This document shows, one piece after another, positions 24,310 through 25,730 of a DNA stretch of 34,485 bases. The position numbers and the translations under genes are program-made. Within the stretch, counting starts at the first letter, position 1; each line of letters begins with the position of its first letter. Under the pieces are notes generated by a model. That model was not told the DNA's origin. It made no database searches and was given only the letters and a program-made list of their open reading frames with translations. The DNA comes from a virus (taxonomy: Duplodnaviria; Heunggongvirae; Uroviricota; Caudoviricetes). The DNA lies in the IMG/VR virus record IMGVR_UViG_2531839587_000015; one strand, written 5' to 3'.

Positions 24310-24621
24310 TTACTCAGGAAATAACGCCCGGATATTCCCAGCCATCTGGCTGGTTATCTTAGCCACTGGTGCAGACTGTGCTTCAAACTTTTTTGAGCTG
24401 ATTTGTGTCACAGGTAACATCTCATCATCAGCCCATGCGGCCAGTCGGTAAGCCTCTGCCGGATTCGTCTTCAGAAGTGCCAGCCCGGCCAGAAAAGCCA
24501 CGCGTTGGCCGCTTTTGCGGGCTTCTGGTGTAAGGCTGTCCAGCCAGGCGCATGCTTCTCCTTCGTTCTTGACGGCGGCGGGCTTCAGATAGAAACTTAT
24601 CCGTCTGGTTGGTGTCGTCAT
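24310..24621 (-). CDS. parR: ParR/StbB-like centromere-binding adaptor protein
   Basis: 103 aa from the Met with an AAGGAG SD, 4 nt after the parM stop. Small basic N-terminus of the kind expected for an RHH fold. Confidence 0.7.
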   Translation of the reverse strand: MTTPTRRISFYLKPAAVKNEGEACAWLDSLTPEARKSGQRVAFLAGLALLKTNPAEAYRLAAWADDEMLPVTQISSKKFEAQSAPVAKITSQMAGNIRALFPE

Positions 24622-24625
24622 TGGT

Positions 24626-25585
24626 TTACTCCTTGTCCATTGCGTACAGCCCATTAACCAGAGCAAACTGTGGCACCCCGTCCGCGATGAAAGTCGCATT
24701 AACTCCGCAGGCTTCGCGGATAGCGGGTGCCACAATCTCCGCCCCGCCACCGACAACCATCACCCGCCCGTAACCCGAAAAAACCGCCAGCGCGCGGATC
24801 ACGCGTTGTTTCAGTGTTTCTTCCTTTTCACGAATAACCGCCATCAGGCTGGCGTAATGCGCGTCATTGTGGATGTGCTGGCGCAGCCAGGCTTCATTAT
24901 GGCGATGTTCGATAATGGTATTGGCGATGTGGTGACTGGTGCGCATACCGTTAGTGGCCATCACCGACAGTACGGCATCGGCCATAAGAGAAACGCCTAC
25001 GTGTGGATCGCAAAACACCTGGCTGATACCTGCCAGTTGCCCCTGAACCTTTGCCACATCCAGCGTGGTTCCGCCCAAATCCACAATCAGCAGGGATTCA
25101 AACGGACTCATGTCAGCCAGTGCTTTAAAGCCAGCCGGAATGGATTCAGGCATAACCCGTACGTTACGGATAGTGAATGCTTCGCCGTTCTGGTACTCCA
25201 CCGGGCGCATGACGTTCGCTTTTTTGCGGTTGATGTTGGCCATGTCCGGCTGTGCGTTTGTGTCGAAATATTCGCTCAGTGGCAGGGGAACAACCACATC
25301 CACTTCCTGTGGCGTGATGTCTGATTTGACCAGCGCGTGATGAATGGCAATGACATTCACATCGCTGTACTGGTATTGCGTGTCGGTCGTCTGGACAAAG
25401 CGATCGCTGACCGGATCAAAACCATAGCGCACGCCATCAAGCATGTAGTTAGCAGGCTGCGAGCCACCGAACGGCGCAGACCATTCCGACTTGAAGCTGT
25501 TCGGGCTGATGGCGTTGCGGCGTTCGCCGTTCTCAGTCCATGCCAGCTTGATGTTGGTGGAGCCGTCGTCGATGTAAATTTTCAT
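24626..25585 (-). CDS. parM: ParM/StbA actin-like segregation ATPase (type II partition)
   Basis: MKIYIDDGSTNIKLAW...ISPNSFK..W...YQYSDVNV.A.HHAL...LIVDLGGTTLD...GGGAE... is nearly colinear with the recalled plasmid R1 ParM. Confidence 0.9.
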   Translation of the reverse strand: MKIYIDDGSTNIKLAWTENGERRNAISPNSFKSEWSAPFGGSQPANYMLDGVRYGFDPVSDRFVQTTDTQYQYSDVNVIAIHHALVKSDITPQEVDVVVPLPLSEYFDTNAQPDMANINRKKANVMRPVEYQNGEAFTIRNVRVMPESIPAGFKALADMSPFESLLIVDLGGTTLDVAKVQGQLAGISQVFCDPHVGVSLMADAVLSVMATNGMRTSHHIANTIIEHRHNEAWLRQHIHNDAHYASLMAVIREKEETLKQRVIRALAVFSGYGRVMVVGGGAEIVAPAIREACGVNATFIADGVPQFALVNGLYAMDKE

Positions 25586-25614
25586 GTCGGTTTTCCTTAT
25601 GTTGATTAATTAAT

Positions 25615-25730
25615 CGTTTACGGGATTCTGAAATCCCGTTTTTGCCTGTTTTGTGCGCGCTTCATATAGCGCTGCGCGTTTTTTGCTCATTTACGGGATT
25701 CGTGAGTCCCGTTTCTGTCTGTTTTTTGTT
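25615..25730. repeat. Two copies of a roughly 42-bp repeat, each with the palindrome ACGGGA-N8-TCCCGT followed by a T-rich tract, separated by a GC hairpin; candidate parC centromere/operator or replication-associated site
   Basis: Copy 1 at 25615-25655 (intergenic, upstream of parM); copy 2 at 25687-25730 (inside the last codons of A). Palindromes acgggattctgaaatcccgt and acgggattcgtgagtcccgt. Confidence 0.7.

Follow-up and report, generated by a model that had tools for sequence, protein, structure and literature searches.

An actin-type partition cassette conserved in P88-like prophages and its candidate two-repeat centromere

Introduction

Actin-type systems that act on DNA have been described in elements that integrate into a bacterial chromosome. 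SrpMRC of the SXT/R391 integrative and conjugative elements (ICEs) stabilizes the excised, rolling-circle-replicating element, and its centromere, in the 5′ region of the motor gene, comprises four short repeats, both direct and inverted, arranged in two units of ~40 bp (Carraro et al. 2015; PMC4489591). In prophage CGP3 of Corynebacterium glutamicum, the AlpAC/alpS system pairs an actin-like protein with an adaptor from the same transcript, which binds repeats ahead of the operon (Donovan et al. 2015, PMC4446434; PMC5539076). Efficient replication of CGP3 DNA requires the AlpAC genes, whose induction comes early after excision (PMC4446434). Here, we analyzed IMG/VR record IMGVR_UViG_2531839587_000015, a 34,485-nucleotide stretch of viral DNA (the window) that is a whole P88-like (Xuanwuvirus, Peduoviridae) E. 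coli prophage of the P2 family. Between its replication gene A and its portal gene Q lies a pair of genes, parM and parR (the cassette, or parMR), related to the ParM/ParR partition genes of plasmid R1.

The cassette as an observation is already known. In PGAP annotation, the two genes appear as "plasmid segregation protein ParM" and "plasmid partitioning/stability family protein," and PHROGs lists both products as partition proteins. The P88 paper does not mention the cassette, the phiSM paper merely lists it as a "fitness" gene, and full-text searches turned up no functional study of parMR in P88-like phages. In one sentence, Rousset et al. (2022; PMC9122126) pointed out a putative partition system at this locus in about a quarter of P2-like phages. 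As a discovery, the cassette is therefore modest. What we add is that it is fixed in its lineage rather than cargo and that it is probably tied to the early operon, without a recognizable promoter of its own. We also describe the domain pattern of ParR, a two-palindrome candidate for the centromere, and a genomic distribution that speaks against plasmid lysogeny.

Results

The parM gene (positions 24626-25585, minus strand) encodes a 319-amino-acid (aa) protein that an initial annotation, made from the DNA letters alone, had called nearly colinear with the actin-like segregation ATPase ParM (StbA) of R1. Database searches bore this out. Both Pfam halves of ParM were matched (StbA_N at 1.8e-79 and the ParM C-terminal domain at 3e-68), and a phmmer search of the Protein Data Bank (PDB) returned R1 ParM 1mwk at E = 5.3e-91, with residues 1-316 aligned to 1-318 at ~50% identity. 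Taken as a group, the R1 ParM structures 1mwk and 4a62 match at E of about 1e-91 and are colinear with the window protein. The nucleotide-binding stretches IDDGSTNIKL, MPESIPAG, DLGGTTLD, and GGGAE are identical between the two proteins, and the phosphate-1, phosphate-2, adenosine, and catalytic Glu motifs are intact. The Asp that corresponds to R1 D170 is D169 in the window protein. A match to PHROG 691 ("partition protein") was found at 3.6e-87. Among more than 5000 records of plasmid ParMs, identity to the window protein is at most ~52%.

The cassette is under strong purifying selection. The ratio of nonsynonymous to synonymous polymorphism (pN/pS) of parM is 0.07 over 58 unique alleles, and the gene is intact at 319 aa in 87 of 89 loci drawn from IMG/VR and genomes. 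One 97%-identical ParM with an E. coli-type upstream region was seen on a Firmicute-assigned contig (NZ_JBQPOM010000071.1, "Vagococcus sp. WN89Y"), which is probably assembly contamination or mislabelling.

The parM stop codon (TAA, 24626-24628) is followed after 4 nucleotides (nt; 24622-24625) by parR (24310-24621, minus strand), which starts at an ATG at 24621 and ends with a stop at 24310. Its AAGGAG Shine-Dalgarno sequence (24629-24634, minus strand) lies 7 nt ahead of the ATG, within the final two sense codons of parM. A mechanical first-start call gives a 148-aa open reading frame (ORF) from a TTG at 24756; we took the ATG at 24621 as the start, for a StbB-like adaptor of 103 aa. This gene had been proposed as ParR from its size, spacing, and ribosome-binding site, and the proposal was confirmed by a match to Pfam PF10784 (Plasmid_stab_B) at 9.8e-24, with 83 bits against a cutoff of 25, and to PHROG 2515 at 2.3e-59. 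PF10784 is also the family of the StbB/ParR genes found just after parM on IncF and IncK plasmids. Both proteins of the cassette thus show significant similarity to the known partition families.

When phage ParR was aligned to plasmid StbB/ParR, the proteins had in common an N-terminal RRxxFxLxP strand region, an ER.R..RA..GLAL helix region, and a C-terminal N-x-x-x-(L/M)-(F/I) tail, in which N96 is invariant. Across the phage alleles, residues 1-60 are nearly invariant (pN/pS of codons 1-64, 0.15), residues 65-92 are hypervariable with several unrelated alleles, and the last eight residues, NI(R/Q)xxFPE, are invariant in every allele. A protein made up of a DNA-binding domain, a flexible linker, and a ParM-binding tail would be expected to vary in this way. 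Some ParR alleles from related loci are only ~55% identical overall, yet all of the alleles keep the N-terminal 60 residues and the NIxxFPE tail. A low-confidence AF2 model of the ParR monomer (pLDDT 58) has helices at residues 20-29, 32-52, and 54-61 and no N-terminal strand. A PDB sequence search with ParR gave no match even at E ≤ 10, and a tblastn search of 72,556 plasmids gave none at E ≤ 1e-3 except on plasmids that carry a P88-like prophage. A ParR search for more distant P2-like relatives recovered only a narrow clade from Escherichia, Cronobacter, and Hafnia.

We then asked whether the cassette is cargo. Directly upstream of parM and in the same orientation lies gene A (25662-28484, minus strand), which encodes a 940-aa rolling-circle replication initiator (Pfam Phage_GPA, 2.1e-130; PHROG 91). 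The portal gene Q (22143-23189, plus strand) bounds the interval on the other side. The initial annotation had placed the cassette between A and Q, in the slot where P2 carries its variable tin and old genes. The first part of that placement is right and the second is not. In P2, the interval from A to cos holds orf91, which is co-oriented with A, followed by tin and old, which are transcribed oppositely; the cassette occupies the position of orf91. P2 itself has only orf91, tin, and old in this interval; the initial annotation had stated that canonical P2 has no partition system.

Each of the 14 P88-like records that matched in the phage collection, P88 and phiSM among them, carries the cassette. 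The window copy is 95 to 97% identical to those of phage P88, Xuanwuvirus P884B11, Citrobacter phage phiSM, and others. A survey of complete E. coli genomes found the cassette in 1304 of 5426 (~24%). For comparison, the 3′ half of the P88-type A gene was found at a coverage of at least 80% in 1355 of these genomes, whereas the stretch of the window between parR and Q was complete in only 166. The small genes in that slot differ in P88 and phage 569R5. The variable hotspot therefore starts downstream of parR, with a recombination boundary inside parR; many relatives match the window only from position 24567 on, so that 24310-24567 falls outside the match. The evidence points to the cassette being a fixed core component of the P88-like lineage at the 3′ end of the early operon and not swappable cargo of the tin/old kind. 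It is a universal feature of this lineage, and no known non-partition function goes with it.

Conservation extends across E. coli, E. albertii, Salmonella, Citrobacter, and a Hafnia metagenome-assembled genome (MAG). The relative in the Hafnia MAG keeps the order A-parM-parR-portal. Its nucleotide identity to the window is 61% at the 3′ end of A, 74% in the repeat region described below, 75% in parR, and 87% in parM (92.5% in amino acids). In this comparison of E. coli and Hafnia-MAG phages, parM is the best-conserved gene of the neighborhood, and the repeat region is better conserved than the adjacent coding sequence of A.

Two 42-nt direct repeats, 81% identical and 73 nt apart, lie upstream of parM. 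The proximal repeat (25614-25655, minus strand) is in the 76-nt spacer between A and parM, the distal repeat (25687-25728, minus strand) is in the last 15 codons of A, and the A stop codon (25662-25664) falls between them. Each repeat contains a 20-nt palindrome, at 25620-25639 and 25693-25712, respectively. In the proximal copy it reads ACGGGATT-N4-AATCCCGT, and the consensus is CGGGAyT-N4-AATCCCG, or ACGGGAyT-N4-AATCCCGT when extended. We consider the two repeats candidate ParR sites that together could form a parC-like centromere. Palindromic repeats had already been noted ahead of parM in the initial annotation, which ended the cassette at 25660. That end is too short: because the distal repeat lies within the last codons of A, the cis region reaches to ~25730.

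The palindrome pattern is specific to this place. In the window it occurs at these two sites only (4 strand-hits against 0.45 expected), and in a complete 34.5-kb relative it occurs only at the two equivalent sites, with 0 of 100 shuffles reaching 4. Across 48 E. coli-group variants, the variable parts are the loops and the spacer between the repeats, and the conserved parts are the palindrome arms and A-rich flanks; the repeats are also conserved in the Hafnia relative. A search of 23150-25900 against Rfam returned nothing for the repeats and two sub-threshold matches, both to a hairpin at 24075-24104. A likeness to R1 iterons was considered and set aside: the phage region has four CA(4-6)C motifs, which recur with 11-bp phasing in an R1-like parC, and the resemblance is too weak for homology. 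The loci whose ParM is ~50% identical to that of the phage have no A or portal gene nearby.

A strict scan found no consensus sigma-70 promoter between the repeats or between A and parM. The best candidate found by eye between the repeats has ~7 of 12 matches in E. coli, and this spacer is the least conserved part of the region. Terminator scans found no minus-strand terminator-like site between A and parM; the only nearby ones on that strand are at 29359-29344, upstream of A, and at 23668-23648, after a cargo ORF. Judging from this arrangement, parMR would be co-transcribed with A as the tail of the early operon (cox ... A-parM-parR). As part of that tail, the two genes would be expressed when the phage is extrachromosomal and replicating and would be silent in the repressed lysogen.

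The initial annotation had raised a phage-plasmid lifestyle as one explanation for the cassette. The genomic distribution argues otherwise: in the 5426 complete E. coli genomes, the cassette occupies 1450 chromosomal places and 2 places on plasmids. Related prophages sit beside host genes, and chromosomal prophages match the cassette at 99.9%, such as one adjoining yecA in E. coli SCU-105. The window itself carries an integrase (33463-34485, plus strand), a helix-turn-helix (HTH) repressor (33100-33429, plus strand), and a Cox-like gene (32706-33032, minus strand), which starts the long co-oriented run of early genes that ends in A, parM, and parR. We found no plasmid-type rep gene in the annotations of two complete relatives or among those ORFs of the window that were scanned. 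Intact attP junctions for one integrase type were found in 0 of 442 complete E. coli genomes at a coverage of at least 80%, a search that is blind to a circular record starting at attP; their absence is weak evidence against episomes. Stable plasmid lysogeny seems unlikely. It is not the norm of the lineage and is possible as a rare state.

Records that could be mistaken for episomes were inspected individually. A circular 34,461-bp entry filed as a plasmid of E. coli strain Z1323PEC0009, NZ_CP148288.1, is the whole genome of a P88-like phage and includes integrase, dam/com, and hok. Over the 12 kb surrounding parMR, it matches the integrated prophage of strain Z1323HEC0067, from the same project, at 100% identity, and the circle may be induced phage DNA. 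Genome-project "phage" records were rejected as evidence for episomes: they include host genes and are extracted prophage regions. One such entry, NC_049343.1 (Escherichia phage 500465-2), is listed in RefSeq as a complete phage genome. It contains the host genes flk, fabB, and mnmC, fragmented portal and terminase ORFs, and a transposase, and is missing the early region, A and parMR included. It seems to be a prophage remnant flanked by chromosomal DNA and not a phage genome.

Other features of the window flank these genes. In the variable slot (23250-24300), an 89-aa ORF (23676-23945, minus strand) has no Pfam match. A promoter-like site on the same strand (24181-24154) would give this ORF a 5′ untranslated region of ~200 nt. 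On the plus strand, another promoter-like site (23978-24006) is followed by a strong hairpin and T-run at 24075-24108, and from the sequence an antisense RNA of ~100 nt possibly runs from this site to the hairpin. The slot also contains a perfect 13-nt inverted repeat (23967-23979 and 24035-24047). Upstream of A in the early operon lies a gene for a 276-aa SPFH/Band-7 lipoprotein-like protein (29527-30357, minus strand; Pfam, 6.5e-31), overlapped by a hydrophobic 67-aa ORF (30354-30557, minus strand). The two appear to be a second cargo insertion, this one within the early operon. The insertion is followed by the only minus-strand terminator-like site of the operon, the one at 29359-29344.

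Discussion

We lean toward the view that parMR is a complete type II (actin-type, ParMRC-like) partition module that acts, as a fixed component of the early operon, on extrachromosomal circles of the phage genome. In the mechanism that we propose, parMR would be expressed once the early operon is switched on, after infection or induction. Dimers of ParR would bind the two palindromic 42-nt repeats that straddle the end of A, which would serve as a minimal parC, and the invariant C-terminal tail of ParR would capture ParM-ATP filaments. The filaments would then move or separate circular phage genomes while these undergo A-driven rolling-circle replication. In this way, unintegrated phage DNA could be kept positioned and inherited before integration or during replication and packaging. 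The more detailed version, in which early-operon-driven ParMR and a two-palindrome centromere separate or position replicating or unintegrated circles, perhaps with a carrier state if integration fails, is held more tentatively, at a little under an even chance.

Several observations weigh against this proposal. There are only two candidate ParR sites, compared to ten iterons in R1 parC, and they are palindromes and not direct iterons. On the plus strand, both palindromes resemble and score as intrinsic terminators, with a stem and a T-run. As RNA, the region 25590-25735 folds strongly, with z of −5.9 in the mRNA sense and −5.5 in the antisense. The timing of expression is argued solely from gene order. 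P2 and 186 replicate and lysogenize well without such a system, so the benefit of parMR to the phage is perhaps small. Finally, one locus (IMGVR_UViG_2657245439_000011, ~5859-5968) has a single 42-nt repeat upstream of parM, apparently left by a 73-bp deletion through recombination between the repeats. In that locus gene A continues through the hybrid repeat to a TAA in GATTAATTAA, and the repeat unit is therefore translatable in that frame.

Some of these points bear on the cis site alone. The terminator-like look of the palindromes on the plus strand and the strong folding of both strands make a non-centromere role for the repeats possible. The repeats might be plus-strand terminators that shield A from antisense transcription, or an mRNA structure that controls the expression or processing of parM, with ParR binding elsewhere or only regulating. 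In support of an RNA role, the common stem variants ACGGGA to GCGGGA and TCCCGT to TCCTGT retain G-U pairs on the mRNA-sense strand. The same variants produce A-C mismatches in the plus-strand hairpin, which would weaken a terminator, and we saw no plus-strand promoter or gene reading into the palindromes. Several variants of the distal repeat abolish pairing altogether. Conserved arms around a variable center also suit a protein-bound palindrome, the position upstream of parM is that of parC and srpC, and the region has no other conserved repeat family. We therefore consider a purely terminator or RNA function unlikely. The folded RNA has a further feature: because the two palindromes are near-identical, they can form a long-range stem that encloses a GCGCT/AGCGC hairpin.

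Other explanations concern the whole cassette. That the module lets P88-like phages persist as stable low-copy plasmids has been proposed in print (Rousset et al. 2022; PMC9122126), and the complete type II gene pair and the circular record NZ_CP148288.1, with its whole P88-like genome, would fit. Of the 50,697 phage records, only those of P88-like phages and D6 (46.9% identity) have an R1-type ParM; we take D6 to be a P1-like plasmid prophage. Against such persistence stand the overwhelmingly chromosomal distribution, the integrase, repressor, and cox genes, replication by the rolling-circle protein A with no plasmid-type replicon found, and the lack of a recognizable promoter like that of plasmid parMRC. 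Over 12 kb the circular record is identical to an integrated prophage of another strain, and the project-derived "phage" records contain host genes. Facultative plasmid maintenance is accordingly quite unlikely. An actin-like ATPase recruited for superinfection exclusion (a role that the initial annotation had also entertained) or defense, plasmid incompatibility, or host manipulation would fit a locus adjoining the known P2 defense hotspot between gpA and gpQ. However, ParM, ParR, and A have no PADLOC match at E ≤ 0.1, and the cassette is constant where the neighboring slot varies, on which grounds we rejected the defense reading. ParR has kept its tail, ParM its motifs, and the locus its cis repeats, as would be expected under the canonical three-part mechanism. 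Cross-reaction with plasmid centromeres is also unlikely, because phage ParR had no tblastn match at E ≤ 1e-3 on plasmids other than prophage carriers, and a non-segregation role as a whole is very unlikely. P2 and most of its relatives lack the cassette, as might be expected if it were a selfish or vestigial hitchhiker with no current phage function, but its low pN/pS, its intact reading frames, and its conservation from E. coli to the Hafnia MAG make this the most improbable of the explanations.

E. coli strains very commonly carry P88-like prophages, with O157:H7, O145, ST131, and enterotoxigenic (ETEC) strains among the carriers, and parMR is therefore probably among the most widespread actin-like segregation systems in this species. 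If the proposal is true, the idea drawn from AlpAC and SrpMRC, that integrative elements need partition while excised, would extend to a classical and genetically tractable family of coliphages. A minimal two-site centromere would become available for study. For an integrating tailed phage of Gram-negative bacteria, parMR would also be the first ParMRC with a demonstrated role in the transient extrachromosomal phase.

How the cassette compares with described systems can be summarized as follows. Its closest counterparts are R1 ParMRC (StbA/StbB/parC) and the IncF and IncK relatives, whose ParM is ~46 to 52% identical to phage ParM, colinear, and equipped with the same motifs. The order and tight spacing of parM and parR are shared, ParR belongs to the same Pfam family, and repeats lie upstream of parM in both. 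R1 has about ten 11-bp direct iterons, whereas the phage has two 42-nt units with palindromes, and the loci of ParM relatives at ~50% identity also have plasmid-type iterons. In plasmid loci (the R1-like IncF locus and several of these relatives), whose layout we read by eye from the locus sequences, a TTGAC.-type −35 and a −10 element are flanked by iterons; the phage has no sigma-70 promoter between its repeats. Phage ParR is shorter, at 103 aa compared to 117 to 140 aa on plasmids. Unlike in R1 ParMRC, the distal repeat is inside the coding sequence of gene A, and the host element is an integrating phage of the P2 family.

Within phages, the StbA/StbB pair of D6 includes an R1-type ParM. 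Partition is expected of a plasmid prophage, whereas P88-like phages integrate. In P2, orf91, tin, and old fill the same interval from A to cos/Q; at the end of the early operon, parMR stands where orf91 would and in the same orientation, and it does not correspond to the variable, oppositely transcribed tin and old.

AlpAC resembles the phage cassette in combining an actin-like protein and an adaptor in an integrated prophage, with sites upstream. AlpC is a distant Alp from a Gram-positive host, the gene order and adaptor family differ, and we liken the two by description only. SrpMRC is likewise an actin-type partition system in a normally chromosomal element that undergoes rolling-circle replication only when excised, and the layout of its centromere closely resembles the two-repeat layout of the phage. 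The phage proteins are close homologues of the R1 type; SrpM and SrpR, by contrast, have only a distant relationship to R1 ParM and ParR. SrpMRC belongs to an ICE and its function has been demonstrated, while the phage cassette belongs to a tailed phage and is known here from its sequence. By analogy, we suggest that parMR plays a role resembling those of AlpAC and SrpMRC on extrachromosomal DNA.

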